DNA of 64,000 bases, filler included, from Candidatus Hydrogenedentota bacterium (GTDB lineage Bacteria; JBFMHD01), in assembly GCA_040752395.1 (NCBI GenBank). It is 7 parts of 7 records of this genome, joined end to end, with 100 filler letters (N's around TTAATTAATTAA, not from the genome) between each part and the next. Parts side by side here need not be neighbours in the genome. Positions count along the whole stretch, not along the records: positions 28,863 to 38,334 come from JBFMHD010000106.1; 6 more parts are not named here. One strand, 5' to 3'. How positions within the stretch are numbered: position 1 is the first letter of the stretch; every line of letters starts with the position of its first letter. Shown one piece after another: positions 3,424-61,901 of this stretch. The notes below the pieces were generated by a model. The model had not been told where the DNA came from and ran no database searches. It saw only the letters and a program-made list of their open reading frames with translations. A program made the translations under genes and the position numbers.

Positions 3424-3562
3424 TATATCAACCCTTATCTATATTAATACCATTCCTTATATTAATATCATTCATTATATCTTTTTCAAGTGTTTTTTAA
3501 AGGTATTCCATCAGTTTTCAGTTGAGTTTATTAATCTTACATCTACTAAAACCGATGGTTTG

Positions 3563-3790
3563 GAGGCACAAAGGCACAGAGTGACAAGTTTGTAATTCCT
3601 CAGTTATTGGTGCGGTAGAACTTACTTTAGAAGCAAGAGGCAAGATAACGGAAGAAGTGAGAAGTGAGAAGTATCAGGACGGGCTACAGGCTACGGACTA
3701 CAGCCGGTTGAAGCCCGAAGCCCGGAGCCTGAAGCCAACATCCTTTAAAAAATTCAGAATGCAGAAATAATCTTTCAATCTTTCAAGATC
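3563..3790 (-). repeat. Partial copy of the modular intergenic element
   Basis: GAGGCACAAAGGCACAGA, CAAGAAG and GAGAAGT heptamers, the GGGCTAC/AGCCCG hairpin at 3680-3741 (reverse complement of 19110-19171) and ATCTTTCA x2. Confidence 0.85.
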
Positions 3791-4238: not shown

Positions 4239-4319
4239 GAATTGACGCAGTAATTTTAATAATTCAATAATTCAAAATTTGACCACATCACTTACTTCTT
4301 GTTTCTTTCGTTATCTTAT

Positions 4320-5582
4320 ATGAGTTATAAATATATAAAACTTTTATTATTGTATGCTTTTAGCGCTATATTGGTATTTTTATTCTCACAAAAAGAGCCC
4401 GATACCCCATTTTATAATGTTCGAGTATATCTAAATGTCTTTACTATTTTATTATTATTGAGCTATTCGTTTCTTGTAATTCTTTCTAACGAAGATACAA
4501 TAAAAAAATATGATAAAATATTCTTCTATTCTTTAATATTTATTCTTATAGTATTACCTATCTTTATAAATATAATATCAAGGTACAGGGCTTCGAATCC
4601 GCTGGTCTATGCTCATGACGGTGGTGTTATCCAGACAGAAGAATCAGCACGGCTGTTACTAAACGGAAAAAATCCATACTCGGCTAATTTTAAGAATACT
4701 CCTTTAATAAACGTTGGCGAGATGGGCATAATTGTTCATAACCCATATCTTCCACTCTCATTTATCATCACAATACCGTTTATTTATATCTGTGATAAAT
4801 TAAATATCTTATTTGATCAGCGAATTATTTATCTTGTCTTCTACTTCAGTGTAATATTTTTTTCTGTATATGTCTTTAAATCAACGAATATCCGTGAAGT
4901 CTTTAAAATATTCTTTGCATTCAACCCATTATTAATCCCTTTTTTAATCCATGGTATGAACGAGATATACATTATTTCTTTACTGTTTATATCCTATTCA
5001 TTATTGATATCCTGTAAATTTTTATCATCATTTTTAGTTCTGGGACTGGCTTGTTCTACAAAACAATTTGCCTGGCTTATAGCTCCTTTTTTTATTATCT
5101 ATCTTAAAGCCACTGCCTCGAAAAATACATTTTATAAATCAATATTTATTTTTATCATTACTCTTCTTGTTTTTATTTTACCATTTTTTATCTGGAGCCA
5201 TTTTGATTTTATAGACGATACATTATTATTTAATGCGGGTAGAAGTTTTGTAAATTATCCTCTTGGTGGCACTCCTGGTATCGGCTTTTCTATGATCCAT
5301 GTGGTCTCGGGTTTTGTAAAAGATAAATATCAATATTTCCCCTGTATACTCTTTATTATTATATTTTGTTTACCTCTTTTTATTTATTTATTGATAAGAT
5401 TATACCGTGAACCCCTGCATTATAATATATTTTTATACGGTGCTATTTTTAGTTCATTTTTTATATTCTTTTCGAGGGTATTTCATTTGAATTATTTATT
5501 TTTTATACTATTCTTACTGGCTGTCGGAATATTTAACAAAATAGATTTAAAAAGTATTGCTAATATAAAGAAAAAATTATAG
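4320..5582 (+). CDS. GT-C fold membrane glycosyltransferase (GT87/DUF2029-like)
   Basis: Many TM helices; HDGG...LLNGKNPY, YLPLSF and ACSTKQF motifs. Start moved to ATG 4320. Confidence 0.65.
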   Translation: MSYKYIKLLLLYAFSAILVFLFSQKEPDTPFYNVRVYLNVFTILLLLSYSFLVILSNEDTIKKYDKIFFYSLIFILIVLPIFINIISRYRASNPLVYAHDGGVIQTEESARLLLNGKNPYSANFKNTPLINVGEMGIIVHNPYLPLSFIITIPFIYICDKLNILFDQRIIYLVFYFSVIFFSVYVFKSTNIREVFKIFFAFNPLLIPFLIHGMNEIYIISLLFISYSLLISCKFLSSFLVLGLACSTKQFAWLIAPFFIIYLKATASKNTFYKSIFIFIITLLVFILPFFIWSHFDFIDDTLLFNAGRSFVNYPLGGTPGIGFSMIHVVSGFVKDKYQYFPCILFIIIFCLPLFIYLLIRLYREPLHYNIFLYGAIFSSFFIFFSRVFHLNYLFFILFLLAVGIFNKIDLKSIANIKKKL

Positions 5583-5607: not shown

Positions 5608-5675
5608 GTAACGCCTCAGCCTTCGGTAGGGTTTCTTTATCTTGCTTCTTAATTCCACCTAAACTGAGGAAAAAC
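5608..5675. mobile_element. 68-bp MITE-like insertion with 8-bp target-site duplication
   Basis: Imperfect 12-bp TIRs GTAACGCCTCAG / CTGAGGAAAAAC flanked by direct repeat GTATCTAA (5600-5607, 5676-5683); contains the TATCTTGCTTCT module. Confidence 0.6.
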
Positions 5676-8698: not shown

Positions 8699-9468
8699 TG
8701 GTTCCCGATCTTCACTGCATATTAAAGAATATTATCAAACAAAAAAAAGAAGAAGTAGAGTCCATAAAGCTTCAGTCTGACAGCAAAAAAAGAAGTATTA
8801 GAAAATTAAAAGATTTCATTTATCAAAGAACAGGTATTATAGCAGAGATAAAACCAGCTTCACCATCAAAGGGTAGACTAAGAACGATCCTTGACCCTGT
8901 AAAAATCGCAATAGAGTATGATAGAGCTAATGCATCAGCTATATCTGTTCTTACTGAAACTGAATACTTTAAAGGGAAGAAAGAATGGATTAAAAAAATA
9001 AGAGATAAAATTAAAATACCTATCTTACGAAAAGATTTTATTATTGACGAGATACAGGTCGATGAGACATACGAGTTAGGTGCTGATACACTCCTTGTTA
9101 TCGTCAGAATCCTTGATGATGATACTATCAAAAAAATTACAAAGCGATGTAAAAAATTTGGGATGGATATATTGTACGAGGTGCATAACAAACTTGAGAT
9201 TAAACGTATACTTGGTCTAAAACCTGAAATAATAGGTGTAAACTGTAGAAATTTAAAAGATTTTACGCTCGATAAAAGGTTGTTTGAAAAATTGATAGAT
9301 TTTATTCCTGATAATGTTTTAGCAATAGCAGAAAGCGGGATAAATAGTATTGAAGAAGCATCTAAAATAAAAAAAATAGGTTATGATGGTTTACTTATAG
9401 GCGAAGTTTTGATGAAATCCAAAAATCCAGCTAAATTCTTTAGAATGTTTTCAGAAGAGTACTCATGA
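8698..9468 (+). CDS. trpC: Indole-3-glycerol phosphate synthase
   Basis: IAEIKPASPSKG, LRKDFI, GVNCRNL, AESGI motifs; last codons overlap the repeat element. Confidence 0.95.
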   Translation: MVPDLHCILKNIIKQKKEEVESIKLQSDSKKRSIRKLKDFIYQRTGIIAEIKPASPSKGRLRTILDPVKIAIEYDRANASAISVLTETEYFKGKKEWIKKIRDKIKIPILRKDFIIDEIQVDETYELGADTLLVIVRILDDDTIKKITKRCKKFGMDILYEVHNKLEIKRILGLKPEIIGVNCRNLKDFTLDKRLFEKLIDFIPDNVLAIAESGINSIEEASKIKKIGYDGLLIGEVLMKSKNPAKFFRMFSEEYS

Positions 9469-13749: not shown

Positions 13750-13809
13750 ATTTTGACACTAAATATGATTTTTTATATAAAAGGCTTATGAGAGAGTTAA
13801 AGAAAAAGA
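13750..13809 (+). repeat. Duplicated ispB promoter and 5' end upstream of the TA cassette
   Basis: 13750-13796 is identical to 14654-14700 (47 bp); 13791-13809 is identical to 14740-14758. Confidence 0.92.
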
Positions 13810-14589: not shown

Positions 14590-14656
14590 AAAATATGATG
14601 GACTTCAGCTAACAGCAGATTTACGATGTTTGTGATAAATCTGCCTGCGCTAGATT

Positions 14657-14685
14657 TTGACACTAAATATGATTTTTTATATAAA
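14657..14685 (+). promoter_or_regulatory. Sigma70 promoter of ispB, probably leaderless transcript
   Basis: TTGACA-N17-TATAAA, ATG begins 7 nt after the -10 box, no SD. Confidence 0.6.
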
Positions 14686-14691
14686 AGGCTT

Positions 14692-15648
14692 ATGAGAGAG
14701 ATTCTTGCACCCATAGCAAATGAACTCTCTTTATTTGAAAGAGAGTTAAAGAAAAAGATAGAATCGAGATTTAATTTTATTGAAGAACAATGTAAATATG
14801 TAATCTTCTCCAATGGGAAACGCATAAGACCGATACTAACCATGCTTTGTGGTCTTTGTCTGCACGTTAATTTAGATAAATTAATAAAGATTTGCTGTGT
14901 GATAGAACTTATACATAATGCAACTATTGTTCATGACGATGTTCTTGATAGATCAGATATAAGACGCGGAAATAAGACACTTAACTTTCTACATAATTCA
15001 AACATAGCTGTTCTAACAGGTGATTATCTTTTTTCAAAAACTATTGATACAAGTTTACAACTGAATAATCAAAAATTCAGCGAAGAGATAGCAAGAGTAT
15101 CTTCACTTATTTTCGAGGGCGAAGTAGAACAGTCTATTAATTCTTATAGAGTGATTGATAAGAAAAAATATATAGATATTATAAAAAAGAAGACCGGGAT
15201 GTTGTTCGGACTGAGTATAGCTTCTCCACTTTTATTTACAGATGATTGTCCGCGTATAAGTTATGAAAAATTATTTAGTGCAGGCGTTGATATAGGTACG
15301 TCTTTTCAGATAGTTGATGATGTTCTCGACTATACCTCTTGCGATACTCATTTGGGTAAACCTGTATATAAAGATTTGAAATCAGGTAAGATGACACTGC
15401 CTCTGATTTACACTTTAAAAAAATTAGAAGGTGGATTAAGAAACAAGGTCATAAAATACTTTATGCGGAATACGAATATTAAAACATTAAAAGAACTTGT
15501 GCATAATAATCATGGCGTAAGAATGTCTTTACGTACGGCAAAAAAACTTGTAAGAGATGCTGTTTGTAATCTGGATGTATTACCGGCTAATAGACACAGG
15601 AAGTCATTAGAAGAATTTATATTTTATCTTACAGACAGGAAGTTTTAG
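14692..15648 (+). CDS. ispB: Polyprenyl diphosphate synthase
   Basis: GKRIRP, VHDDVLD...RRG, KKKTG, FQIVDDVLD, GKMTLP. Start moved to ATG 14692. Confidence 0.88.
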   Translation: MREILAPIANELSLFERELKKKIESRFNFIEEQCKYVIFSNGKRIRPILTMLCGLCLHVNLDKLIKICCVIELIHNATIVHDDVLDRSDIRRGNKTLNFLHNSNIAVLTGDYLFSKTIDTSLQLNNQKFSEEIARVSSLIFEGEVEQSINSYRVIDKKKYIDIIKKKTGMLFGLSIASPLLFTDDCPRISYEKLFSAGVDIGTSFQIVDDVLDYTSCDTHLGKPVYKDLKSGKMTLPLIYTLKKLEGGLRNKVIKYFMRNTNIKTLKELVHNNHGVRMSLRTAKKLVRDAVCNLDVLPANRHRKSLEEFIFYLTDRKF

Positions 15649-16390: not shown

Positions 16391-16436
16391 TTTTCTGATA
16401 CTTCTCACTTCTTACTTCTTACTTTTTCAGGGGAGA
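16391..16436 (+). repeat. Mini copy of the element (heptamer module plus 3' core)
   Basis: CTGATACTTCTCACTTCTTACTTCTTACTTTTTCAGGGGAG directly before ATG 16443. Confidence 0.7.
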
Positions 16437-16442
16437 TGAATT

Positions 16443-17780
16443 ATGGAAGAAATACAATTAGAACATAGACCACTGGACCCAAAAACTATTGAAGAAGCAG
16501 GTATAAGTGAAGAAATAGTTGAATCACTGATACTGAAAACAATTAAACAGGAGGGCGCTAAAACAAGAGAGGAGCTCTCTTTGTATATTAGATTGAACCC
16601 AAATATTTTGACACCATTCCTTGATTCGTTAAAGCAGAGAAAGATGCTCGAGGTCCAGGCAGGACTTAAATATGCGATGCTATCTCCGGGCAAAGAGATG
16701 TGTAAAATGTATGAAGAAGAGGATAACTATGTTGGCCCGGCACCTGTATCGTTTAAATCTTATTGTGAGATGGTATTATTACAGGATACAAGAGAAAAAA
16801 CTGTAACACTACAGGATGTTAAAGAGATAGCTAAAGAATATCAATATACTGAAGAACAATTATTATATTTTAAAGAAGCATTTAATTCAAGAAGGAGCGT
16901 ATTCTTTTTTGGCCCCCCTGGTAACGGGAAGTCACTTGTAACCTCTTTGATGCATGCATTACTTATAGAACCTGTGCTTATACCATATACGTTTGAATTT
17001 AACAAAAAAGTCGTGAAAATATTTGACCCCGCATATCACCAACATCTGGAAAAAGAAGATAAAGACATAAAAGCTGCTACCCCTGAAGAATTAGCTGCAA
17101 GAATCAAGGGACAGAAGGTACGATATGATAAACGCTGGCTTGTATGTAAAGCACCACTTGTTATTGTAGGCACTGAATTTCGGGTGAAACATTTTGAAAT
17201 AAATTTTATAGGACATTTCATAGCACCACCACACCTTAAAGCTAATAACGGTATCTTTATTTTTGACGATCTGGGTAGACAACTCGATGATCATAGAGTA
17301 ATCCTGAATCAGTTCATTTACCCCCTTGAAAATCAACAGACTATCATAGCGTTCCCTGGGGGCAGTAGCTTAATAGCCCCGTATAAACAGAGGCTCTTTC
17401 TCTCGACTAACCTTAACAAAGATGATATCATTGATGATGCATTTAACCGCAGACTTTTGTACCAGATATTTATATCACGACCGGATAAAGAGACTTATAA
17501 AAAGATTTATGTTAATATCGCAAAAAAGTTCGGGCTTGATGATAGTTGGGAGGACCAGCTGTATCAGGACTCAACAGTTTTACTTGAATGGTATGACAGG
17601 GATCAGAGGTCTATACGTGCCTGTGACCCGAGAAACCTTTTTATTATGATGTTAGCTGCACTTGATCCGGGACAAAGTTTAAAAGATATTTACAACCGAC
17701 AACTATTAGAACGAATATACAAAAAGTATCCGATGGCTTACAGAACTGATGAAAAAGAATATAAGAGATCAGGATTGTGA
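16443..17780 (+). CDS. AAA+ ATPase of unknown function
   Basis: YVGPAPV, Walker A GPPGNGKS, KANNGIFIFDDLGRQ, DDAFNRR. Confidence 0.8.
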   Translation: MEEIQLEHRPLDPKTIEEAGISEEIVESLILKTIKQEGAKTREELSLYIRLNPNILTPFLDSLKQRKMLEVQAGLKYAMLSPGKEMCKMYEEEDNYVGPAPVSFKSYCEMVLLQDTREKTVTLQDVKEIAKEYQYTEEQLLYFKEAFNSRRSVFFFGPPGNGKSLVTSLMHALLIEPVLIPYTFEFNKKVVKIFDPAYHQHLEKEDKDIKAATPEELAARIKGQKVRYDKRWLVCKAPLVIVGTEFRVKHFEINFIGHFIAPPHLKANNGIFIFDDLGRQLDDHRVILNQFIYPLENQQTIIAFPGGSSLIAPYKQRLFLSTNLNKDDIIDDAFNRRLLYQIFISRPDKETYKKIYVNIAKKFGLDDSWEDQLYQDSTVLLEWYDRDQRSIRACDPRNLFIMMLAALDPGQSLKDIYNRQLLERIYKKYPMAYRTDEKEYKRSGL

Positions 17781-18983: not shown

Positions 18984-19011
18984 TTGACAATTTTTATAAA
19001 TTATTTATAAT
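18984..19011 (+). promoter_or_regulatory. Consensus sigma70 promoter pointing into the repeat element
   Basis: TTGACA-N16-TATAAT about 20 bp before the first module. Confidence 0.55.
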
Positions 19012-19287: not shown

Positions 19288-19456
19288 GATATGAAAAGAG
19301 TCACAAGTCGCAAGTCGTGAGTCAAAACAGGACTCGAGACTCAAGACTCAAGACTTTTCAGCAGGCTTTGGGCTTTTGGCTCCAGCCGGCTGTAGTCCGT
19401 AGCCTGTAGCCTGTACCCCGAATTATTAGAGTTACAATGTTTTTCAGAGGAGGAGG
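19288..19456 (+). repeat. Modular element copy (3' part)
   Basis: GAGTC/GACTC heptamer hairpin, CAGCCGGCTG hairpin, 3' end TTACAATGTTTTTCAGAGGAGG. Confidence 0.9.
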
Positions 19457-19463
19457 TTCGATA

Positions 19464-19856
19464 TTGAGAAAAGAAAGGAGAGTGTATTTAAGATACGAGA
19501 TAGAGCTTCCTGTTGATATAGAGATGGACGAAGGGAATGTGAGTATTAAGACAGTGTCGAAGAATATATCTGGTGGTGGTATTTTTGTAGAGGTGCCGGT
19601 AAGGCCAGAACTTTTTTCACAAGCGATATTAAAAATTGATTTTAGTAATATTGGTGGAGGGGTAAAAGTTATACCAGCTGTTGTAGTTCATACATTATCT
19701 AAAGAATCAGTAAACGAACAGAGGAGCGAGGTAGGTTTAGTATTTGACACAAATGATAATGAATTACGGATGGAGATAGATAATTGTTTAAGAAAGGCAT
19801 ATCCGTTTGAGAGGATAAAGAACAAATTAAAATTTTTTATAAAATCATTATTATGA
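19464..19856 (+). CDS. PilZ domain protein
   Basis: RRVYLR and NISGGG motifs; likely TTG start at 19464 behind GGAGG, since the ORF-track MFFRGG start lies in the repeat. Confidence 0.75.
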   Translation: MRKERRVYLRYEIELPVDIEMDEGNVSIKTVSKNISGGGIFVEVPVRPELFSQAILKIDFSNIGGGVKVIPAVVVHTLSKESVNEQRSEVGLVFDTNDNELRMEIDNCLRKAYPFERIKNKLKFFIKSLL

Positions 19857-23724: not shown

Positions 23725-24615
23725 ATGATGAAATCAGAATGGATTGAAGAGTTTATTATTTTGTTAAGAGTTGAGGCTGGATTAACTGAAAATACACTTT
23801 CAGCTTATAGAACAGATTTAAAACAGTTTTATGAATATTTAGAAAAGAAAAACAAACTTGATAAAGAGGTTCAGAGAAGAGATTTACTCCAATATTTTTT
23901 ATATTTGAAAGAGTGGAGGGACTTATCCTTACGGAGTGTGGCACGTCATACTGTTACAATAAGGAATTTTTTTAATTTCTTATATAGAGAGGATAAAATT
24001 CAATTAAATCCCGCAGAAGATTTAGAATCACCGAGGATAGAGAAGCCGTTACCGACGTTTTTAACCGATGATGAGATGGAAAAACTTTTAAAACTACCTG
24101 ATAATAGAGACATATTCGGGATGCGAGACAAAGCTATGTTAGAGCTTTTATATGCTACAGGAATGCGAGTTTCTGAGATAATTAATATAAGAATAATAGA
24201 TTTAGACCTTAATGAAGGTTATGTTAGAGTAAAAGGCAAAGGTGAGAAAGAGAGAATAGTACCGATAGGGAGTGAAGCACTTGAAGCGGTAAAAATATAT
24301 TTACAGAAAGGTAGAAGAGAGTTAAAACCCGAAAATAATGAGGACAAACTTTTTCTTAATAAAAGTGGGAAGGTATTAACGCGACAGGGGTTCTGGAAAA
24401 TATTGAAACGATATGCAAGAATGAGCGGGAAAAGTGATATCACGCCTCACACCCTGAGACATACTTTTGCAACGCATCTCTTATCAAATGGTGCTGATTT
24501 AAGGAGTGTGCAGGAATTATTGGGTCACTCTGATATCAGCACAACTCAAATTTATACACATACAGACACTTCGCGACTTATTTCTGTACACAGGCAGTAC
24601 CATCCACGAGCATAA
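23725..24615 (+). CDS. xerD: Site-specific tyrosine recombinase XerD
   Basis: RDKAMLELLYATGMRVSE, TRQGFWK, TPHTLRHTFATH, LGHSDISTTQIYTH, C-terminal HPRA. Confidence 0.92.
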   Translation: MMKSEWIEEFIILLRVEAGLTENTLSAYRTDLKQFYEYLEKKNKLDKEVQRRDLLQYFLYLKEWRDLSLRSVARHTVTIRNFFNFLYREDKIQLNPAEDLESPRIEKPLPTFLTDDEMEKLLKLPDNRDIFGMRDKAMLELLYATGMRVSEIINIRIIDLDLNEGYVRVKGKGEKERIVPIGSEALEAVKIYLQKGRRELKPENNEDKLFLNKSGKVLTRQGFWKILKRYARMSGKSDITPHTLRHTFATHLLSNGADLRSVQELLGHSDISTTQIYTHTDTSRLISVHRQYHPRA

Positions 24616-27787: not shown

Positions 27788-28582
27788 TTATCCTTTTAAT
27801 ATTTTCATAGCTTCATTAACAGAGGCATTTTCGTGAACAATTGTACATATAGCGCGAACCATTTTTCTTGGGGATTCATGTCCAAAGGCATTACGTCCGA
27901 CAGCGACACCTTTGCCGCCTGCGGTGATAGAATCTTTTATTATAGAGAATATAAGTTTTTCATCTTTTATTTTTTCGCCGCCAGCGATAACAACCGGTAT
28001 AGGGCAGCTTGATACGACTTTTTCGAAAGTTTTAATAGAGCCTGTATAAGAGACTTTAACAATATCAGCTCCGAGTTCAGCAGCGATTCGTGCAGCGTGT
28101 TTTATACCTTCAGGGTCTGTTTCAGATTTAAACTTTTTACCACGAGTATACATCATTGCAAGGAGAGGTATCCCCCATTCATAACATTTAACAGATACCT
28201 CACCCAAATCTTTTAACATTTCATCTTCATTAAGAGCACCGATATTAATATGGACGCTGACCCCATCAGCCCCGAATTTTATTGCATTTTCCACAGTATT
28301 AACAAGCACTTTAGCATTTGGGTCAGGGCTCCATATAGTACTTCCTGATAAATGGAGTATGAGACCGATATCTTTGCCGTGTTTTCTATGGCCGTGGATA
28401 GGCAGACCGAGATGTCCGAGCACTGCGTTTGCGCCGCCCTCAGCAATTTCGTTCACCATATCCCGCATATTTTCTATACCACTGATAGGGCCTATTGTTA
28501 CACCGTGGTCCATAGGTACGATTACGGTCTTTTTTGTCTCTCTATTAATTATTCTTTCAAGTCTTATATACTTACCGAGCAT
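27788..28582 (-). CDS. 2-amino-3,7-dideoxy-D-threo-hept-6-ulosonate synthase (AroA', DhnA-type aldolase)
   Basis: IVPMDHGVTIGP, ELGADIVK, PVVIAGG, GRN; adjacent to AroB'. Start moved to ATG 28582 (MLGKYIRL). Confidence 0.9.
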   Translation of the reverse strand: MLGKYIRLERIINRETKKTVIVPMDHGVTIGPISGIENMRDMVNEIAEGGANAVLGHLGLPIHGHRKHGKDIGLILHLSGSTIWSPDPNAKVLVNTVENAIKFGADGVSVHINIGALNEDEMLKDLGEVSVKCYEWGIPLLAMMYTRGKKFKSETDPEGIKHAARIAAELGADIVKVSYTGSIKTFEKVVSSCPIPVVIAGGEKIKDEKLIFSIIKDSITAGGKGVAVGRNAFGHESPRKMVRAICTIVHENASVNEAMKILKG

Positions 28583-28589
28583 ATAGATA

Positions 28590-28762
28590 CCTCCTCTGAA
28601 AAACATTGTAACTATAATAATATCAAGTAGAAGCAAGAAGCAAGAAGCAAGATAAACAAACATCTAGTTTTTCATACGTTGTGTAGAGCGCAAAAGCGCT
28701 CATGTTGACTCCTTCGAAGAACGCTGTAACTCTAATAATTTCACGAAGTAAGAAGTGAGAAG
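28590..28762 (-). repeat. Modular element, head-to-tail arrangement
   Basis: Two copies of the 31-bp end motif (28591-28621 and 28709-28739, 25/31 identical) enclosing the REP-like hairpin and CAAGAAG repeats. Confidence 0.9.
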
Positions 28763-28862: not shown

Positions 28863-28950
28863 CGGATGAGTTCATAGTAGCGAAGACGACAGGGACAACA
28901 TAACCCTGTAAGAGCGAAGGGACTCTACTTTAACAAAAGTTTCTAAAAGA
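28863..28950 (+). mobile_element. Probable group II intron remnant (domain III and start of domain IV)
   Basis: CGGAT-GAGTTC-ATAGTAGCGAAGA...ACAGGG/CCCTGT...GAGCGAAG-GGACTC-TACTTT resembles bacterial group II intron DIII; no RT ORF or domain V follows. Confidence 0.55.
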
Positions 28951-29269
28951 AGGAGTACTCATGAGCGCGGTTTGCGCTCTACACTATTGTGTTCTTGGGT
29001 TATTGGGTTATTGGGTTATTGGGTTTTTGCGCTCTACACAATATATGAAAAACTAAAGATGATATAAAAAGAGTCGTGAGTCACAAGTCGCAAGTCGTGA
29101 GTCAAAACAGGACTCAAGACTCAAGACTTTTCAGCAGGTTCCGGGCTTTTGGCTCCAGCCGGCTGTAGTCCGTAGCCTGTAGCCTGTCCTGACACCTCTC
29201 ACTTCTTCCGTTATCTTGCTTCTTGCTTCTACTTGATATTATTAGAGTTAGAATGTTTTTCAGAGGAGG
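28951..29269 (+). repeat. Full-length modular element upstream of rpoZ
   Basis: All modules in order: REP-like hairpin, TTGGGTTA array, second GCGCTCTACAC, GAGTC/GACTC hairpin, CAGCCGGCTG hairpin, TCTCACT/TCTTGCT, 3' core with GGAGG. Confidence 0.93.
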
Positions 29270-29279
29270 TATTACTGAG

Positions 29280-29489
29280 ATGCGAGCGACTCTTGAAAAT
29301 TTGCAGGATAAAATCCCTAATAAATATAAATTATGTCTTGTTGCTGCAAGAAGGGCTAAAATGATTACAAACGGTGCACCACCACTGTTATTTACTAAAA
29401 ACATAAAGCCAACCACTATTGCACTTGAGGAGATACTTAACAAGAAAGTCACTATAAAAGAGGGGAAGAAATCCAAAAGTAAACAATGA
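29280..29489 (+). CDS. rpoZ: RNA polymerase omega subunit
   Basis: NKYKLCLVAARRAK, KPTTIALEEI; upstream of coaBC; start moved to ATG 29280. Confidence 0.92.
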   Translation: MRATLENLQDKIPNKYKLCLVAARRAKMITNGAPPLLFTKNIKPTTIALEEILNKKVTIKEGKKSKSKQ

Positions 29490-34844: not shown

Positions 34845-34955
34845 TTTTCCGTTATCTTGCATCTTGCTTTGGCCAGACACATAGGTCTGCCACTACATTG
34901 TTTTCTGATACTTCTTACTTCTTATTTCTTTACCGCTATAACTTGAGGGGTTATA
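34845..34955 (+). repeat. Element modules enclosing a GTAG-REP-like hairpin
   Basis: CCGTTATCTTGCATCTTGC, then minus-strand GTAGTGGCAGACCTATGTGTCTGGCC (34871-34896), then CTGATACTTCTTACTTC. Confidence 0.75.
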
Positions 34956-37930: not shown

Positions 37931-38308
37931 TATAGCGCTTTGGCGCTCTATATATAACCACTCAGTTAAAGTTCGGAGGAGTAGTCATGAGCGCGGTTTG
38001 CGCTCTACACTATTGCGTTCTTGGGTTCTTGGGTTATTGCGTTATTGCGTTTTTGCGCTCTACACAACGTATGAAAAACTAAAGATGATATGAAAAGAGT
38101 CGTGGGTCGCAAGTCGTGAGTCAAAACAGGACTCGAGACTCAAGACTCAAGACTTTTCAGCAGGCTCCGGGCTTTTGGCTCCAGCCGGCTGTAGTCCGTA
38201 GCCTGTAGCCTGTAGCCCGTCCTGATACTTCTCACTTTTTCCGTTATCTTGCTTCTTGCCTCTTGCTTCTACTTGATATTATTATAGTTACAATGTTTTT
38301 CGAAGGAG
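37931..38308 (+). repeat. Full-length modular element with a degenerate upstream REP-like hairpin
   Basis: TAGCGCTTTGGCGCTCTATA at about 37933, full module series from 37977, 3' core TTTTTCGAAGGAG before ATG 38316. Confidence 0.92.
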
Positions 38309-38334
38309 AACCAAAATGGTCATTCAACCTGAGA

Positions 38335-47729: not shown

Positions 47730-47768
47730 TTAAGATAACGAAAGAAGCAAGAAGCAAGAAGCAAGATA
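47730..47768 (+). repeat. CAAGAAG heptamer module between ftsW and murG
   Basis: AAGATAACGAAAGAAGCAAGAAGCAAGAAGCAAGATA. Confidence 0.8.
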
Positions 47769-47981: not shown

Positions 47982-48293
47982 AAGTAGAAGCAAGAAGCAA
48001 GATAACGGAAGAAGTGAGAGGTATCAGGACGGGCTACAGGCTACAGGCTACGGACTACAGCCGGCTGGAGCCAAAAGCCAAAAGTCTGCTGAAAAGTCTT
48101 GAGTCTTGAGTCTTGAGTCTCGAGTCCTGTTTTGACTCACGACTTGCGACTTGTGACTCTTTTCATACTTTGTGCCTCTGTGCCTCTGTGCCTTTCCCTT
48201 CTGTCTCCTGTCTCCTGTCTTCTTTCTGCCTTTGCCTGCCTGCCGCGGCGGAGTGCGGCGCAGGCAGGTGCCTCTGTGCCTGTGCCTTCGTGC
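47982..48293 (-). repeat. Modular element with extra TGTGCCTC and CTGTCTC arrays and a CCTGCCTGC palindrome
   Basis: Reverse complement of the standard modules to about 48167, then 8-mer and 7-mer arrays with CCTGCCTGC...GCAGGCAGG at 48235-48268. Confidence 0.9.
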
Positions 48294-48394
48294 TTAATAA
48301 ATGCCTTAAGCATTCACTTGAACCCTAAAAATGATGCTTTTAAAAAAGAGCTGGAAAAATTATTTAATTATGTTAATATATTATTATAATTCTT

Positions 48395-52061: not shown

Positions 52062-52148
52062 ACATCTTGCTTCTTGCTTCTTGATATCCCCTCAGTCTAC
52101 TACGGGTCTTGTGACCCTCACTACTCTGTGTCTCTTTCGTTATCTTAT
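52062..52148 (-). repeat. CAAGAAG module interrupted by a GTAG-REP-like hairpin
   Basis: Minus strand AAGATAACGAAAGA [..GTAGTGAGGGTCACAAGACCC..] CAAGAAGCAAGAAGCAAGAT; compare the uninterrupted 47730-47768. Confidence 0.7.
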
Positions 52149-52163
52149 AATTAAGCAGTTACA

Positions 52164-52913
52164 TCATAAATTGGCTTTTTGTAATATCTGCTCCGGGATA
52201 TCCATATTGGTAGTAACCTTATTAATGTCATCGAGTTCTTCAAGCGCTTCTATTAATCTCATATTTTTTTCTGCTGTCCCTATATCAATCTCAGTATAAT
52301 TATCCGGAACGAGGTTAACATCAGCTTCTTTAATTTCAAATTTAAAATCTTGTAAACCTTTTTTTACTTTTTCAAAATCTTCAAATTCAGTTTTTATAAT
52401 AATTTCATCCTCATCGACCTCAAAATCAGAGGCTCCACTATTAATAGCAACATCAAGTATCTCTTCTTCTTTGTCAGATTTTTTAATAATAATAACACCC
52501 CTGCGTTTAAAATTCCATGCCACAGCACCGCGTTCAGCCAGACGCCCATTATGTTTGCTGAATATATTTCTTACCTCAGAGGTTATCCTGTTTTTATTAT
52601 CAGTAACAGCTTCAACTACGATAGCTATGCCTCCAGGGCCATATCCTTCATAAATAATATCTTCATAGTTCACACCTGGTAACTCACCTGTACCCCGGGC
52701 AATAGCCTTTTTAATGTTATCCATCGGCATATTAGCTTCTCTGGCTTTAGTAACCACGAGTCTGAGTCTCGCATTTGAATTTATATCACCGCTCCCACCT
52801 GTTTTAGCAGCTATTGTTATTTCTTTGGCAAGTTTAGAAAATAATTTTCCCTTTTTAGCATCCTGGTTCTCTTTTTGTCTTTTAATCTTACTCCATTTGG
52901 AATGTCCTGACAC
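52164..52913 (-). CDS. yebC: YebC/PmpR family protein
   Basis: MSGHSKW, YEGYGPGG, TDNKNR; upstream of ruvC. Confidence 0.95.
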   Translation of the reverse strand: MSGHSKWSKIKRQKENQDAKKGKLFSKLAKEITIAAKTGGSGDINSNARLRLVVTKAREANMPMDNIKKAIARGTGELPGVNYEDIIYEGYGPGGIAIVVEAVTDNKNRITSEVRNIFSKHNGRLAERGAVAWNFKRRGVIIIKKSDKEEEILDVAINSGASDFEVDEDEIIIKTEFEDFEKVKKGLQDFKFEIKEADVNLVPDNYTEIDIGTAEKNMRLIEALEELDDINKVTTNMDIPEQILQKANL

Positions 52914-52925
52914 AGTGTAAATCTA

Positions 52926-53406
52926 CTCCTCTGAAAAACATTGTAATTATAATAATATCAAGTAGAAGCAAGAAGCAAGATAACGGAAGAAGTGAGAGGT
53001 ATCAGGACAGGCTACAGGCTACGGACTACAGCCGACTGGAGCCCAAAGCCCAAAGCCTGCTGAAAAGTCTTGAGTCTTGAGTCTTGAGTCTCGAGTCCTG
53101 TTTTGACTCACGACTTGCGACTCATGACTCTTTTCATATCATCTTTAGTTTTTCATGCTTTGTGTAGAGCGCAAAAACGCAATAACCCAATAACCCAATA
53201 GTGTAGAGCGCAACCCGCGCTCATGGGTACTCCTTCGAAAAAGTTCGGAGCTCGGAGTTCGGAGCTCGGAGTTCGGAGCTCGGATCTATTATTACAAACT
53301 CCTAACTTCTAACTCCTATGACAAGTTAAAAGTAAAAAGTCAAAAGTTAAAAGTAAAGAAAGCGAAAATATACACTTCCTTGCCGTATCTTTCAATCTTT
53401 GAATCC
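52926..53406 (-). repeat. Full-length modular element plus three upstream modules
   Basis: 52926-53243 standard series with the core at both ends; 53244-53317 GGAGTTC/AACTCCT hairpin; AAAAGTT array; ATCTTTCA module. Confidence 0.93.
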
Positions 53407-53417
53407 CTGGACTGACT

Positions 53418-53795
53418 TCAGTCAGCGGATTGAAGAATTTCAATTTCTTGAAGACTCATCTGTAATTTGGTAGCTACCTCTTCATCGGAAACACCCTTTT
53501 CTTTGAGATTTCTTATTACAGTTTTTAATTTATCTCTGTCAAGAAGAACCCTTGTTTTTTTCTCTGTCTCTCTGGAACTATTTATTATCGCTTTAAGTTC
53601 TTCTTTTGCTTGCTCAAGATCACTTATATACAATTCTGCGACTCTGTTAAATTCGCTTATAAGTAGATTAATGTTTTCTCTCTCTCTCTTAAAACTATCC
53701 TCATATTTGATAATTTTTTTTATAATGAGTATATAAAAGATAAGAACTACAATACTATTCAATACTACAAATAATCCGATTACACCATAAATCAT
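53418..53795 (-). CDS. Membrane-anchored coiled-coil protein with C-terminal HTH-like segment (DUF2802-like)
   Basis: N-terminal TM; GVSDEEVATKLQMSLQEIEIL; follows fapA. Confidence 0.55.
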   Translation of the reverse strand: MIYGVIGLFVVLNSIVVLIFYILIIKKIIKYEDSFKRERENINLLISEFNRVAELYISDLEQAKEELKAIINSSRETEKKTRVLLDRDKLKTVIRNLKEKGVSDEEVATKLQMSLQEIEILQSAD

Positions 53796-57533: not shown

Positions 57534-57639
57534 GCTGATTAAACCACCAAGGAATTGAACGGACATTTTGCGCCGAGCGGATAGTCAATTCCAGCTGTAG
57601 TCTTGAAAGATTGAAAGATTAGATTTCGTAAAGCCGGAT

Positions 57640-58776: not shown

Positions 58777-59751
58777 ATGCGATATGATGGTGTAACCATT
58801 TTGATAACAAACTGGAATGGTAAAAAATTAATCTTACCCTGTATCAGAGATGCAATCAATTCAGCTAATCTTTACAAAGGTCCAGTAGAGTTATTAGTTA
58901 TTGATGATTTTTCTTCTGATGATTCTGTCTCCGCCATACAACAGGAGTTCCCTTCTGTAAATATTTTTGTAAATGAAAAAAATCTTGGTGTTGGTGGCGC
59001 TATCAATGTGGGATTTGAAAAAGCTATGTATGACTATGTTATCTTATTAAATAACGATTGTTACCTCCGAGGTGATTATATTACACCTATGATGGATACG
59101 ATTAACAGATTTAACCCTCAAAGGGTCTTTGCTGTTATGAGCAGGGTATATGAGAATGATAGTGAAACTCCTGGTGGTGGTCTTTCGAGAGCATATATAC
59201 ATTATGGTTTACTAAGGGTCAGATGGGCAACCGAAGGAAAATATTTAGAAAAAGAGAGTTATACATTTTACGCTACTTCAGGTGCTATGTTCAGCAAAAA
59301 AAAATGGTTAGAGTTAGGCGGCATGGACCCTTTGTTTAAACCGTTTTATTCTGAGGATGTCGACATCTCTTACCGAGCATGGAAACGCGGCTGGTTGATA
59401 ATTTATCAGCCAAAATCCAAATTAATACACAATCAAGGGACTACAATAAAATCTAATTTTTCTAAAAAATTAATAAGATTCAGTTCGCAAAAAAATAGAT
59501 TTCTTTTCTTTTATAAAAATATGGATGATTTTCTATTCAATCTAAATCACTGGTCTGTAATTTTTTTCAGATTACTTGAGTTTTTTATTAAATGCGATTT
59601 TAAAGTGATTATTGAGATTATTAAAATGTGGAGTAAATTCCCGTATTTTAATAATCATAAACAAAAAGAAAATTTACAAAGAAGATTGACTGATAGAGAC
59701 ATATTAAGTATATCTTCAAAATGGTATTTTACCAATGCTCCAACAAAGTAA
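58777..59751 (+). CDS. GT2 glycosyltransferase
   Basis: ITNWNG, IDDFSSD, LLNND, EDVDISYRAWKRG. Confidence 0.88.
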   Translation: MRYDGVTILITNWNGKKLILPCIRDAINSANLYKGPVELLVIDDFSSDDSVSAIQQEFPSVNIFVNEKNLGVGGAINVGFEKAMYDYVILLNNDCYLRGDYITPMMDTINRFNPQRVFAVMSRVYENDSETPGGGLSRAYIHYGLLRVRWATEGKYLEKESYTFYATSGAMFSKKKWLELGGMDPLFKPFYSEDVDISYRAWKRGWLIIYQPKSKLIHNQGTTIKSNFSKKLIRFSSQKNRFLFFYKNMDDFLFNLNHWSVIFFRLLEFFIKCDFKVIIEIIKMWSKFPYFNNHKQKENLQRRLTDRDILSISSKWYFTNAPTK

Positions 59752-60943
59752 AAAAATTACAAAATTATTATTGCTACTATTTTTCTTCTTTCTACCAATC
59801 TCAATCACTCTGTCCGAGATTTTTGGTTTCTTATCTTTTCTAACAGCTATTTTTATTATGGTTCAGCATAATACACCATATTACAAACCATCGAAAAATA
59901 TTGTAATCTCTTTAACATTACTTATTTTAATGCTGATACTATCTGTAGTTTTTTCTAAAGATACAGGTTTGAGTCTGAATTACTTGAAAAGACACTGGAA
60001 ACTTTTGATACCTGTAGGTGTTTTTTTACTTGTAAGCATTGATAATGATTTTTTTATTAAAATTATAAAATCATTTCTTTGTGGTATTATTTTATCTATC
60101 ATAGCCATTATTATCTCAGAATTTTTTTCAATTGAATTTTTAGATAATTACGATTTTTCTTATGGTTTCTTAAGAAAGAATGCTGCCGGAGTTATGTATA
60201 TCTATGCCGGGATATGGACGGCTATATCTATTATGAAAAAAGATTTAATAAAGTATATAGTTTTTATTTTAACTCTGGGTCTGTTAGTTCTTCTTGATAT
60301 AAGAGAATCGGTTTGTGGTTTCCTGACTGCTATGATTACTTATTTTGTTTTATCAAATAAAAAAGTAATAATCACTTGTTGTGTTATCATATTAGTTATA
60401 GGTATCTTGTTTACAGGCAAAGGTAAATATTTTATAAGGGGAGATAATGGTTCTATTACTGGCAATGTTCTTGACAGATTCGGTGCCTGGAACAGATGTT
60501 TTGAATTATGGAAGAAAAATCCTGTCTTTGGTCTTGGAATGAGTGTATTTGATAAAATTAATCACGATTTTATCTGGGAGAGAAAAGGATTTATTAAATC
60601 AGGTCCAATCACACCTCATTCTATGTATATCAAAGTTCTCATTGATGGCGGTATAGTTGGCATATCATTATTTGCTGGATTCTTATTTTATCTTTTAAAA
60701 GAATTACACAGCCTATTCTATTCTATTAAAGATAATGAGTTGTTAAGAGGTGTATGGTTATCATTATTTTCAAGTTTTACAGGTTTTTTAACAGTGGGGT
60801 TTTTCAACGAATGTTTTACAGATGCTGAGGTTTTCTTACTTGTATTCAGTTTTTACAGTGCTGGTGTGGCTTATTTGAACGTTAACTACACACTTCAGAT
60901 TGCAGACTACGGGCTACGGGCTACGGACTCCAGCCGGCTGTAG
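59735..60943 (+). CDS. O-antigen ligase family protein (WaaL-like)
   Basis: Multi-TM; DRFGAW, NPVFGLG, PHSMY...GGIVG; C-terminus encoded by the repeat. Confidence 0.78.
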   Translation: MLQQSKKITKLLLLLFFFFLPISITLSEIFGFLSFLTAIFIMVQHNTPYYKPSKNIVISLTLLILMLILSVVFSKDTGLSLNYLKRHWKLLIPVGVFLLVSIDNDFFIKIIKSFLCGIILSIIAIIISEFFSIEFLDNYDFSYGFLRKNAAGVMYIYAGIWTAISIMKKDLIKYIVFILTLGLLVLLDIRESVCGFLTAMITYFVLSNKKVIITCCVIILVIGILFTGKGKYFIRGDNGSITGNVLDRFGAWNRCFELWKKNPVFGLGMSVFDKINHDFIWERKGFIKSGPITPHSMYIKVLIDGGIVGISLFAGFLFYLLKELHSLFYSIKDNELLRGVWLSLFSSFTGFLTVGFFNECFTDAEVFLLVFSFYSAGVAYLNVNYTLQIADYGLRATDSSRL

Positions 60944-61097
60944 TCCGTAGCCTGTAGCCTGTCCTGATACCTCTCACTTCTTCCGTTATCTTGCTTCTTG
61001 CATCTTGCTTCTTTCGTTATCTTTCTTTTCCGTTATCTTGCCTCTTGCCCCTTGCTTCTATTTGATATTATTATAGTTACAAAGTTTTTCAGAGGAA
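60884..61097 (+). repeat. Modular element copy (3' part)
   Basis: GGCTACG heptamers, CAGCCGGCTG, duplicated CGTTATCTTGC module, 3' core TTTTTCAGAGGA before ATG 61104. Confidence 0.9.
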
Positions 61098-61103
61098 ATT
61101 TAT

Positions 61104-61901
61104 ATGGAATCTATTGTTATAGAGAATTGTCCTGTATGCGAAAATAAAGAATCAGAAAAGTATTGTGAAGGAGATTGGTGGGAATATGTAAAATGCAAGA
61201 AATGCGAACTCTTATATTTGAAAAAAAGACTCCCGACATCAAAGATGTATAAGTCTTACAGCGGTGGTCTACTTAAAGAAATAAGACGAAAATTAACATA
61301 CCCATTTAGAAAATCAAAAACATTTAAAAATCTTGAAACATCACTTGCAAGATGTGAAATCATTGTTGATGAAATAGAAAATTTTGTTTATCCACCGGGA
61401 AAGCTGCTTGACATAGGCTGCAACAAGGGATATCTAATCGCTACCTCTTTGTGCAGAGGGTGGGATGCTTATGGAATAGAACTTATTCCTGAATTGCCAA
61501 TGGTGATTAAGCGAGAGTTCTGTCTTGAAAATAAAATATTTATAGGTGACATCTCAAGAAATCACAATTATTTTGAGGATAATTTCTTTGACTGCGTCTC
61601 GCTTATAGATATGATAGAACATTTTGAAAAGCCGGTTTCTGATTTAAATAATTTAAACAGAATCCTTAAAAATAACCGTATCCTTTTTATACAAACCCCT
61701 GATTTTAATAATATTCTATCAAAAATATATAGAAGTGCGTGGGGCGGCCTTAATCCCTGCGAACATCTCTGTATATACAATATCAACTCAATTAAATATC
61801 TTTTAGATAAAACAAATTATAAACTCATCAAACTAAAAAGTGGCATTGATAAATATTGCGGTAATATGGTTGTCATTGCTGAAAAATTGTCTAATGTATG
61901 A
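61104..61901 (+). CDS. Class I SAM methyltransferase with N-terminal zinc ribbon
   Basis: CPVC...CKKC, LLDIGCNKG, IEH, QTPD. Confidence 0.85.
   Translation: MESIVIENCPVCENKESEKYCEGDWWEYVKCKKCELLYLKKRLPTSKMYKSYSGGLLKEIRRKLTYPFRKSKTFKNLETSLARCEIIVDEIENFVYPPGKLLDIGCNKGYLIATSLCRGWDAYGIELIPELPMVIKREFCLENKIFIGDISRNHNYFEDNFFDCVSLIDMIEHFEKPVSDLNNLNRILKNNRILFIQTPDFNNILSKIYRSAWGGLNPCEHLCIYNINSIKYLLDKTNYKLIKLKSGIDKYCGNMVVIAEKLSNV

Follow-up and report, generated by a model that had tools for sequence, protein, structure and literature searches.

A family of mosaic intergenic repeats, comprising nine large copies, one partial copy and additional fragments, is distributed over the window, i.e. the whole stretch of 64,000 nucleotides that was analysed, which consists of seven short contigs of a draft genome with 34% GC (contig limits are the runs of N). 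The family is a real dispersed, modular and non-coding repeat whose occurrence lies far above chance expectation. Its architecture, its copy number, its unit-wise indels and its orientation, as well as the placement and strength of the Shine-Dalgarno (SD) site that it carries, can be read directly from the window. We regard it as a lineage-specific, dispersed mosaic of STRR-type heptamer hairpins and a few unique linkers that resides in transcribed spacers, spreads by recombination or gene conversion and retains its orientation by means of an SD-bearing tail, a composite explanation to which we assign an even chance of being correct.

At least one stretch of family sequence, recognised by 15-mers shared with distant sites, is present on each of the seven contigs, and each of the nine large copies, like the partial one, is found where the earlier note had placed it. 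The 22-nt core of the tail occurs at six sites with up to three mismatches and a 24-nt GTAGCC module at nine sites with up to two mismatches, compared with none in 100 shuffles in either case. Period-7 arrays account for 45 of the 92 TRF rows of the window, against 0–7 in 20 block shuffles. At least 33 of these 45 are intergenic according to crude gene calls, and among the remaining 12 there are seven in element-bearing spacers that are overlapped by spurious or over-extended ORF calls. With the same crude gene calls and small fragments delimited by eye, the spacers amount to about 5,574 nt, of which the family occupies about 2,206 nt, and it is found in 16 of the 34 gaps of at least 30 nt. 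Minor fragments identified by shared 15-mers are located at 643–659, 4248–4320, 5636–5650 and 34845–34924. In the full copies the shared 15-mers span 28950–29272, 37985–38301 and 52926–53225, and in copy 60884 they span 60928–61082.

The modules are best illustrated by the copy that precedes rpoZ, in which they succeed each other in the order A to H:

28950–28984, plus strand: module A, with an SD-like AGGAG at 28951–28955 and an ATG at 28961–28963
28963–28979: 6-bp hairpin of module A, GAGCGC (28963–28968) pairing with GCGCTC (28974–28979), followed by TACAC
28985–29039, plus strand: module B, an 8-nt array of the TATTGGGT type with 5.6 units, closed by a second GCGCTCTACAC
29045–29065, plus strand: module C, the unique linker ATGAAAAACTAAAGATGATAT
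29069–29131, plus strand: module D, a hairpin of two heptamer-array arms, with (R)AGTCNN in the left and GACTCAA in the right one
29135–29186, plus strand: module E, a hairpin around CCAGCCGGCTG, its left arm made of GGCTNNR and its right arm of GTAGCCY units
29185–29233, plus strand: modules F and G, pyrimidine-rich heptamers, F being GTCCTGAYACYTCTCACTTCTTCCGTTA and G a TCTTGCT array
29234–29268, plus strand: module H, the tail GATATTATTAKAGTTACAATGTTTTTCAGAGGAG, which bears the SD site of rpoZ
29280–29489, plus strand: rpoZ, the gene behind this copy (TIGR00690, E 1.5e-12, alignment beginning at residue 2)

TRF identifies modules D, E, F and G as tandem heptamer arrays, and such arrays are often paired with their own inverse, thereby forming long hairpins. 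Module A was detected at six sites in a fuzzy motif search, and its hairpin, which folds with -10.7 kcal/mol, is the same in all six A-bearing copies; the mini-ORF within it was dismissed as a gene candidate, given that its frame and length (10–31 codons, by eye) vary among the copies. The octamer array of module B (TRF row 28985–29029, period 8) is present in three of the ten aligned copies with three or five units. Module C was found at four sites within three errors, and shorter variants (C') occur in copies 9441 and 28590. Module D, which was recognised by its inverted repeats and period-7 TRF rows, is present in five copies with folds of -20 to -32 kcal/mol; its interpretation as a cluster of GANTC methylation sites was rejected, as no depletion of GANTC was seen elsewhere (172 sites observed, 188 expected). 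The palindromic module E is found in eight copies and additionally as a mirror arm in copy 60884. Module F occurs at five sites within four errors, and the F/G region, which is covered by period-7 TRF rows, contains two weak promoter-like matches (CTGAYA-17-TATCTT and TTGCYT-18-TATTAT).

The other members of the family, with copies named by their approximate position, are the following:

37985–38308, plus strand: copy 37931, a full copy from A to H as established by alignments; the next gene begins at 38316 and is truncated by the end of the contig
52926–53232, minus strand: copy 52926, a full copy from A to H before yebC, with unique flanks on both sides within one contig
28587–28762, minus strand: copy 28590, a short copy with an F fragment, an H-like module, A, C', G and H, cut by the contig end
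9457–9564, plus strand: copy 9441, a short copy with A, C', G and H, cut by the contig end
19029–19187, plus strand: copy 19031, with A, C, a variant of E and the first part of H, truncated by the end of the contig
19288–19453, plus strand: copy 19288, with the end of C, D, E and H, starting at the contig start
47982–48167, minus strand: copy 47982, with D, E, F and G, truncated at the start of the contig
60907–61097, plus strand: copy 60884, with a near-perfect palindrome of E, F, an extended F/G array and H
3628–3788, minus strand: partial copy 3563, with a variant of E, F and G and without a tail
47731–47768, plus strand: F/G fragment in inverse orientation, an AAGAAGC array that follows a stop codon and precedes the next start codon
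52064–52149, plus strand: F/G fragments in the gap that separates yebC from ruvC, opposite in orientation to both genes
16391–16442 (shared stretch to 16452), plus strand: miniature relative composed of CTGATACTTCTCAC, (TTCTTAC)n and TTTTTCAGGGGAG

Five of the 12 contig ends in the window stop inside family sequence, and therefore the terminal copies are truncated and their neighbours are not established; three further contig ends are located within about 115 nt of the family. In copy 60884 the preceding ORF ends at a TAG (60941–60943) inside module E, the next gene begins at 61104, and TRF reports a period of 17 over 60977–61046. The miniature relative ends 7 nt ahead of the start codon at 16443. 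Additional repeats adjoin two copies, namely further, unshared heptamer arrays (TRF rows) at 53242–53405 beside copy 52926, and other heptamer and octamer hairpins at 48171–48300 upstream of copy 47982.

The alignment of ten copies exhibits a single module order, in which whole modules are present or absent in varying combinations, and the indels, including those among the three full copies, comprise whole units of 7 or 8 nt. This is in agreement with the fixed order, the gain and loss of entire modules and the varying repeat counts that had been described before, but the linkers, which had been called nearly identical, are only similar, since 41 pairs of copies, compared at their shared columns, are 65.6–95.4% identical (median 83.5%). 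The three full copies are mutually 89–94% identical; their similarity stops sharply at both ends, and the flanks are unrelated. An H-like core (TTC-R-R-AGGAG) is also found ahead of module A, and copy 28590 even harbors a complete H-like module ahead of A. Beyond the modules described in the earlier note, AAGATTGA units are shared between 3769–3786, 53387–53405 and 57601–57621, and GGCACAGA units are found in 48171–48193 and near 3560. The left arm of module E mirrors the right arm in copy 60884, whereas the other copies have a different left arm, which fits a re-templating of hairpin arms on each other.

All six complete tails are located 5–13 nt before a start codon and point at the gene. 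The genes behind the copies encode rpoZ, yebC, ADH synthase, a PilZ protein and a methyltransferase, and the starts of the first three are backed by profile alignments from residue 1 or 2 (yebC, 52164–52913, matches NF001030 from residue 1; the ADH synthase gene behind copy 28590, 27788–28582, matches NF005556 from residue 2), while the PilZ-domain gene behind copy 19288 starts with TTG at 19465. The orientation has two exceptions, i.e. the F/G fragments at 47731–47768 and 52064–52149, which are inverted relative to the downstream gene. The predicted SD pairing energies of the element genes range from -5.9 to -12.4 kcal/mol, compared with a median of -3.7 kcal/mol for 60 other genes (Mann-Whitney p=0.0009). 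The strongest SD sites of the window are those of module H, and a value of -12 kcal/mol is reached by none of the 60 other genes, even with the best alternative start for each. A masking of the SD site by the pyrimidine-rich heptamers was suggested by a first look at five copies (unpaired 0.02–0.29), but the predicted accessibility of the SD region in the element genes (0.26–0.54) is not significantly lower than that of 57 other genes (median 0.52; p=0.09), and masking is thus not supported.

In the explanation that we favor, the mosaic would occupy the transcribed spacer before genes, either as a 5' leader or in an intercistronic gap, with transcription being suggested by matches to consensus promoters. 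Its arrays would lengthen and shorten by replication slippage, hairpin arms would be re-templated on each other, and whole hairpin modules could be gained or lost. The composite would then be copied among spacers by recombination or gene conversion rather than by a classical cut-and-paste transposase; this recombinational copying is suggested solely by the absence of transposon hallmarks. Upon arrival, module H would replace the translation-initiation region of the downstream gene with AU-rich sequence and a strong GGAGG SD site, and probably only copies in that orientation would persist. As the tail supplies the SD site of the gene, the cassette would set downstream expression, which the variable pyrimidine-rich heptamers may in turn tune.

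Three other explanations have to be weighed against the recombinational mosaic, and the least of them is an assembly artefact, i.e. collapsed or chimeric copies from a short-read metagenome assembly. The accumulation of contig ends in and near the family and the small size of the contigs, only about 9.5 kb each, would fit this scenario, but copies 52926, 60884 and 3563 are internal to contigs with unique sequence on both sides, the copies differ in substitutions and unit numbers and hence have not been collapsed, and a real multi-copy repeat would itself cause such breaks. An artefact is accordingly highly improbable, and the family is the main cause of the fragmentation of the assembly. The same five broken contig ends imply many more copies genome-wide and thus speak for a mobile element of a non-autonomous type (MITE, REPIN or SDR-like), which would depend on an enzyme acting in trans from another locus of the genome, target SD sites and insert harmlessly by bringing its own SD. 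The unrelated flanks and sharp similarity limits of the three full copies, the TTC-R-R-AGGAG core at both ends, the unrelated housekeeping genes downstream and the subterminal hairpin at the 5' end are consistent with such an element. A check for REP/REPIN features identified module E as an inverted pair of GTAG-containing units and module A as a 6-bp hairpin, and the GTAG-containing units are reminiscent of REP heads, which we count in favor of mobility. However, terminal inverted repeats common to the copies are absent: the sole terminal pair, 12 nt at 83%, is found in the focal copy only, requires a variant base of that copy and is missing in the other full copies (by eye). The 5' cores follow the consensus TTCGAAGGAG and the 3' cores TTCAGAGGAG, and their match within a copy (7–11 of 13, by eye) is no higher than between copies. 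Both bear AGGAG, but these two separate consensus forms make the ends unlike target duplications of individual copies. A MITE-type form of the non-autonomous element envisaged in the earlier note is thus not supported. Recent activity is not shown either, and the copies are 5–34% diverged. The combinatorial module content would moreover require many extra events. The statement of the earlier note that the mobiliser is not within the window stands, as the 50 ORFs of the window that were scanned include no transposase, reverse transcriptase, four-helix-bundle protein or RAYT, and the 10 small ORFs scanned no four-helix-bundle (IVS) protein; the lone recombinase among the 50 is a XerC/D-like integrase (23725–24615). 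The mobility of REP/REPIN sequences, by comparison, is tied to a RAYT gene in the available part of their description (PMC3116915). Taken together, transposition in trans is an unlikely origin of the family. A related proposal, namely a new mobile non-coding element that invades and replaces translation-initiation regions with its own strong SD site and perhaps a weak promoter, thereby keeping the gene expressed, and whose heptamer hairpins would serve as substrate of recombination or replication, is quite unlikely.

The third explanation is a selected cis-regulatory leader RNA, whose hairpins would be processing or stability sites (e.g. for RNase III) or sites for a heptamer-specific protein and whose heptamer number would be a mutable expression dial. 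It would account for the strict orientation and SD placement, and strong promoter-like sites are located upstream of two copies (12/12 at 18984–19011 before copy 19031; 10/12 at 53395–53367 before the mosaic of copy 52926). The sense strand of module E folds better than the antisense strand in seven of eight copies, and the G-U asymmetry favors sense in module E (22 vs 7) but not in module D (8 vs 12), the copies being non-independent. Moreover, an 8-nt complementarity between TGAAAAAC of module C and GTTTTTCA of the tail is kept wherever both modules occur, with a wobble-compatible change in copy 37931 (by eye). A precedent is hmw1A of Haemophilus influenzae, where, in the portion of the report at hand, an (ATCTTTC)n array in the transcribed 5' UTR forms a hairpin with a purine-rich partner, the level of expression is determined by the number of units and the hairpin is processed by RNase III (PMC12721329). 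The pyrimidine-rich heptamer array is common to both, but the hmw adhesin array represents a single locus with a demonstrated function, whereas the mosaic is a dispersed family whose function is conjectural. In Nostoc, heptamer repeats adjoin start codons, and heptamer deletions had modest effects in reporter constructs, according to the accessible part of the preprint (bioRxiv 10.1101/2022.06.06.494920). The structured leader RNA considered in the earlier note is hence plausible with respect to the upstream promoter-like sites, but the covariation analysis speaks against it, since none of the 84 predicted pairs in the consensus fold of the three full copies exhibits a compensatory change. The downstream genes lack a common functional theme, the modules are dispensable copy by copy, and SD accessibility does not differ significantly from that of other genes. 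Searches of the whole window against Rfam gave no match at gathering score, in line with the lack of a named family that had been anticipated, and a search at E<=1 of 52880–53440, which contains one full copy, yielded nothing beyond two miRNA hairpins at chance level (E 0.4 and 0.67). The fold z-score of the whole element is -1.57 in sense and -3.14 in antisense direction. No terminator was predicted in the focal copy, and three terminator-like sites in 52900–53430 are not common to other copies. We consider a selected leader RNA an unlikely explanation of the family.

Among known systems, the traits shared with REP/BIME mosaics and heptamer STRRs had been correctly recognised at the outset. 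STRRs were reportedly first described by Mazel et al. in 1990, and their original definition includes a filamentous or heterocystous cyanobacterium as host. The present host is, as far as its sequence indicates, one without demonstrated cyanobacterial affinity, unlike these original hosts; its best non-self MurE match is 46% identical, and the named top matches belong to Clostridia, Nitrospira, Deltaproteobacteria and others. An atlas search with MurE yielded no more than a general Bacillota label. As in STRRs, short tandem arrays of 7 nt are located in intergenic regions at many loci with variable unit number, but here several different arrays, connected by unique linkers, follow each other in a constant order, the entire chain of about 110–330 nt is dispersed as a unit, and a non-repetitive tail with a canonical strong SD site is placed between the arrays and the start codon. 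BIMEs combine palindromic units with other short motifs into mosaics, and the BIME/REP/REPIN sequences of enterobacteria and Pseudomonas resemble the family as many-copy intergenic mosaics. However, REP/BIME sequences mainly occur at gene 3' ends or in the spacers of convergent gene pairs, in contrast to the six of six complete tails that adjoin start codons here, and their units are palindromes of 20–40 nt instead of tandem heptamers. The MIRUs of Mycobacterium tuberculosis are short repeats that occupy intercistronic gaps of operons, where stop and start codons overlap. A comparable overlap exists in only one of the six A-bearing copies, namely copy 9441, where the trpC stop codon (9466–9468) is the TGA inside CATGA of the element. 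Elhai et al. are said to have described in 2008 the small dispersed repeats (SDR) of Nostoc, which are very small and nested inside other repeats. The family differs from both MIRU and SDR in its unit structure and its SD-bearing tail.

BOX modules are tens of bases long and not heptamer arrays. Compared in architecture only, the BOX element of Streptococcus pneumoniae (boxA - n x boxB - boxC) likewise has a fixed module order, a variable number of internal modules and extensive secondary structure, and it is co-transcribed and thought to affect the expression of its neighbours, as far as the available section of its description extends (PMC3049150). In the same section, no transposase of its own is known for BOX, as for the mosaic, and an RBS anchoring to the next gene, unlike here, is absent from the text (PMC3049150). 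Heptamer repeats are known as GGGNATC in Xanthomonas and Nostoc (PMC4692102), and the TAACTGA repeats of Beggiatoaceae adjoin start codons according to the part of the report available (PMC4679880). STRR-like heptamers are often located near start codons, as is the family in the window.

What appears to be unusual here is the dispersal of a whole hairpin chain with unique linkers as one unit. Heptamer-repeat hairpins are widespread, and in most genomes each of them is unique to its own locus. To our knowledge, the origin and purpose of such STRR-like hairpins have remained unexplained since 1990. The mosaic represents a rare case in which the spread of heptamer hairpins is traceable through linked unique sequence: a fixed hairpin chain has been copied before many unrelated housekeeping genes and provides the strongest RBS where those of other genes are weak. 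The family may link heptamer hairpins directly to gene expression, and, given a complete genome, transcript maps or cultured material, it would be a good test bed for the questions whether heptamer arrays tune translation and how arrays move. If an element that invades initiation regions were the true explanation, STRR-like hairpins would be working parts of its propagation and not passive products of slippage.

Matches to parts of the mosaic were also sought elsewhere. A tail pattern retrieved a single site in genome contigs, which is located in a coding region of a Nomurabacteria MAG and was judged to be a chance match, and the three linker patterns had no match in viral contigs. The search for the GTAGCC module in metagenome contigs returned 12 loci, all of which have 60–71% GC, are unrelated and are devoid of the linkers (0 of 12). 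Two pure array patterns matched 24 and 6 loci in viral contigs that are unrelated to the mosaic. Single heptamer words thus recur in unrelated organisms, GTAGCCY at the metagenome loci and GACTCAA in viral contigs, and in three of the latter (L025, L026 and L036) the GACTCAA arrays are located just before start codons.

The dispersed modular intergenic repeat family is real and unusual in its organisation: different heptamer hairpins and unique linkers form a chain that is dispersed as a single unit and anchored at gene starts. The 15-mers shared with distant parts of the window mark the nine large copies and the partial copy (at about 3563) at the places given by the earlier note, together with several fragments, and each of the seven contigs carries at least one copy or fragment. 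The 22-nt core of the tail has six sites at up to three mismatches and the 24-nt GTAGCC module nine sites at up to two, versus none in 100 shuffles in either case. The three full copies (28951, 37931 and 52926), located upstream of rpoZ, of a gene truncated at a contig end and of yebC, align over ~320 nt. The resemblance between them sets in abruptly at TTC-R-R-AGGAGTA..CATG and breaks off just as abruptly at ..TTTTTCAGAGGAG. Their flanks are unrelated, the indels between them are whole 7- or 8-nt units, and repeat counts indeed vary. The ten-copy alignment likewise bears out the proposed fixed order of modules that are wholly present or absent. Identity over its shared columns ranges from 65.6 to 95.4% (median 83.5%; full copies 89–94%); the linkers, previously described as nearly identical, are therefore only similar, and no sign of the recent activity once proposed was seen. 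The family occupies ~2,206 of ~5,574 nt of spacer DNA and occurs in 16 of the 34 gaps that measure 30 nt or more, shares that depend on crude gene calls and on a few small fragments delimited by eye. Five contig ends lie inside it, and it is highly improbable that the copies are an assembly artefact.

Tandem heptamers make up most of the modules. The window gives 92 TRF rows, 45 with period 7 (0–7 in 20 block shuffles) and 12 with period 8. In each of modules D and E, two heptamer arrays in inverted orientation fold into a long imperfect hairpin, and the heptamers of modules F and G are rich in pyrimidine. Module B, which a second GCGCTCTACAC closes, is an array of 8-nt units; in our reading these units resemble the right arm of hairpin A in degenerate form and would derive from it. 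The modules belong to the STRR-like class, and spacer heptamer arrays without a counterpart in other copies also occur, e.g. at 53242-53405 and 48171-48220. A further shared unit, AAGATTGA (TTGAAAGATTGAAAGAT), lies at the upstream margin of several spacers (3769-3786, 53387-53405, 57601-57621) and provides the TTGAAA hexamer of a 10/12 promoter-like site in copy 52926. On the opposite strand within the priA helicase coding region, positions 643-659 match the E/F junction of the mosaic exactly over 17 nt; the match may be accidental (rough expectation ~0.02) or may be left over from the origin of the module.

All six complete tails (module H) face a start codon 5-13 nt downstream, and the starts of rpoZ, the ADH synthase gene and yebC are confirmed by profile alignments that begin at residue 1-2. 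The Shine-Dalgarno (SD) pairing energy of the tails is -5.9 to -12.4 kcal/mol, whereas 60 other genes have a median of -3.7 (p=0.0009), calculated with a generic anti-SD motif. With this generic motif, -12 kcal/mol is reached by three of five element genes versus none of the 60 other genes, even at their best alternative start. The genes of the window are mostly weak in SD (median pairing energy -3.7 to -4.8 kcal/mol, n=60), a background against which the GGAGG tail of the repeat is conspicuous. An H-like core is also present upstream of module A, in copy 28590 even as a whole H-like module, and the unit therefore reads H'-A-...-G-H. The element contains the stop codons of two upstream ORFs:

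9466-9468, stop codon of trpC, the TGA of the element's CATGA, in an ATGA stop/start overlap
60941-60943, stop codon TAG of the O-antigen-ligase-like ORF 59735-60943, located in module E, ~12 codons into E

Module A moreover opens a mini-ORF behind its own SD (28961-29056, 37987-38082 and, on the minus strand, 53224-53153). It has 10 codons in short copies and, where module B is present, 23-31 codons with a hydrophobic product; its frame and stop depend, as read by eye, on how many 8-nt units there are, and it is probably not a gene.

Among known families the mosaic works most like a BOX-type modular repeat with STRR-type heptamer hairpins as its modules, going by the description in PMC3049150, and its placement differs from that of REP/BIME elements in being anchored at gene starts. 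According to PMC4692102, heptamer repeats of Xanthomonas and Nostoc are enriched in non-coding DNA and mostly transcribed; TAACTGA repeats are described a few nucleotides from start codons in Beggiatoaceae, some cyanobacteria and Bacteroidetes (PMC4679880), and heptamer repeats of Nostoc lie near start codons and are stated to have modest effects in reporter constructs (bioRxiv 10.1101/2022.06.06.494920). We found GTAGCCY arrays at 12 metagenome loci (L002-L013; 60–71% GC) between genes of unrelated organisms; by eye these represent nine distinct sites, four of which have an inverted partner array upstream. The arrays often occur with inverted GGCTACR partners, and other heptamers stand beside them (GGGAANN in L009, CCCAGNG in L011 and L013). 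GACTCAA arrays are located just upstream of start codons in the viral contigs L025, L026 and L036, with an inverted partner in L036. The mosaic linkers are absent from all 12 metagenome loci and these three viral loci, and three linker patterns searched against the viral contigs gave no match. About 18 of the 24 viral (GACTCAA)n loci (L014-L037) are one phage locus with an array of 7-31 units that begins a few bases past the ATG (followed by TCAA or TTAA) and looks like a coding, length-variable contingency repeat. The mosaic is a novel form of a known but unexplained repeat class, and our proposals on its function and mobility are drawn from sequence.

We give about an even chance to a lineage-specific mosaic of STRR-type hairpins that rides in leaders and intercistronic gaps and would be tolerated or favoured because its tail supplies a strong ribosome-binding site. 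An element mobilised in trans and aimed at SD regions is unlikely: a terminal inverted repeat common to the copies was not found, and the 50 window ORFs scanned include no transposase, reverse transcriptase or four-helix-bundle protein; their sole recombinase is XerC/D-like, in line with the earlier statement that the mobiliser is not in the window. The AGGAG cores at the two ends have separate consensus forms and are, by eye, not alike within each copy. Judged by two sequence hallmarks, a terminal inverted repeat common to the copies and a target duplication specific to each copy, the mosaic is not a MITE. In copy 60884 the left arm of module E mirrors the right arm, whereas the other copies have a different left arm, a pattern compatible with one arm having been re-templated on its partner. 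The unit-wise indels, the mirrored arm and the missing mobile-element hallmarks lead us to favour, partly from absence of evidence within the window, a mosaic whose arrays would change by slippage, whose hairpin arms would be re-templated on each other, whose hairpins would be gained and lost, and which would be copied between spacers by recombination.

A selected regulatory leader family is similarly doubtful. Its closest worked example is Haemophilus hmw1A, for which PMC12721329 describes a heptamer 5'-UTR hairpin processed by RNase III.

The tail of the focal copy (28951) has no good sigma-70 match, and a looser promoter scan retrieved TTGCYT-18-TATTAT (8-9/12) in five copies and CTGAYA-17-TATCTT in module F. 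Much stronger promoter-like sites upstream of the whole mosaic (12/12 at 18984-19011; 10/12 at 53395-53367) suggest that it is transcribed as a leader. Terminator-like sites common to the copies are absent from the scanned focal copy and the regions of two other copies. Compared with shuffles, the fold of the whole element is only slightly better in sense (z -1.57) and somewhat better in antisense (z -3.14). In seven of eight copies the sense strand gives the more stable fold of module E (G-U pairs 22 vs 7), and module D has no strand bias in G-U pairs (8 vs 12), in both cases among copies that are not independent. The structured leader of the earlier note gained nothing from covariation: the three full copies yield a consensus fold of 84 pairs, none of which shows a compensatory change. 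Element genes show no difference from other genes in predicted SD accessibility (p=0.09), and the Rfam search gave no match, in agreement with the view that no named RNA family applies. An RNA-level function is thus possible but gains no support from covariation.

The host DNA (seven contigs of ~9.5 kb, 33.7% GC) carries ordinary housekeeping genes: trpD/trpC, priA, rpoZ-coaBC, yebC-ruvC, an ADH synthase with a DHQ synthase II, genes for PilZ, PEP-CTERM and TPR proteins, and a dcw cluster with murE. Among 5.8 billion clustered proteins, none related to MurE exceeds 46% identity, so the organism is without a sequenced close relative; the top named matches come from several phyla. In the part of the window that the family does not occupy, CATG is far scarcer than expected (32 observed vs ~188 expected), and GATC (77) and GTAC (65) are also below this expectation. 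CATG is kept in every module A, with eight in 2,175 nt of the family, and its scarcity may reflect restriction-site avoidance that the family escaped. A 60-nt stretch is identical at 13750-13809 and 14654-14713, ~900 nt apart, and holds a near-consensus promoter-like TTGACA-17-TATAAA (read by eye) and an ATG. One site precedes a HepT-like gene region and the other lies just past the ATG (14626) of a polyprenyl synthetase ORF; this is a second gene-start duplication, unrelated to the mosaic.
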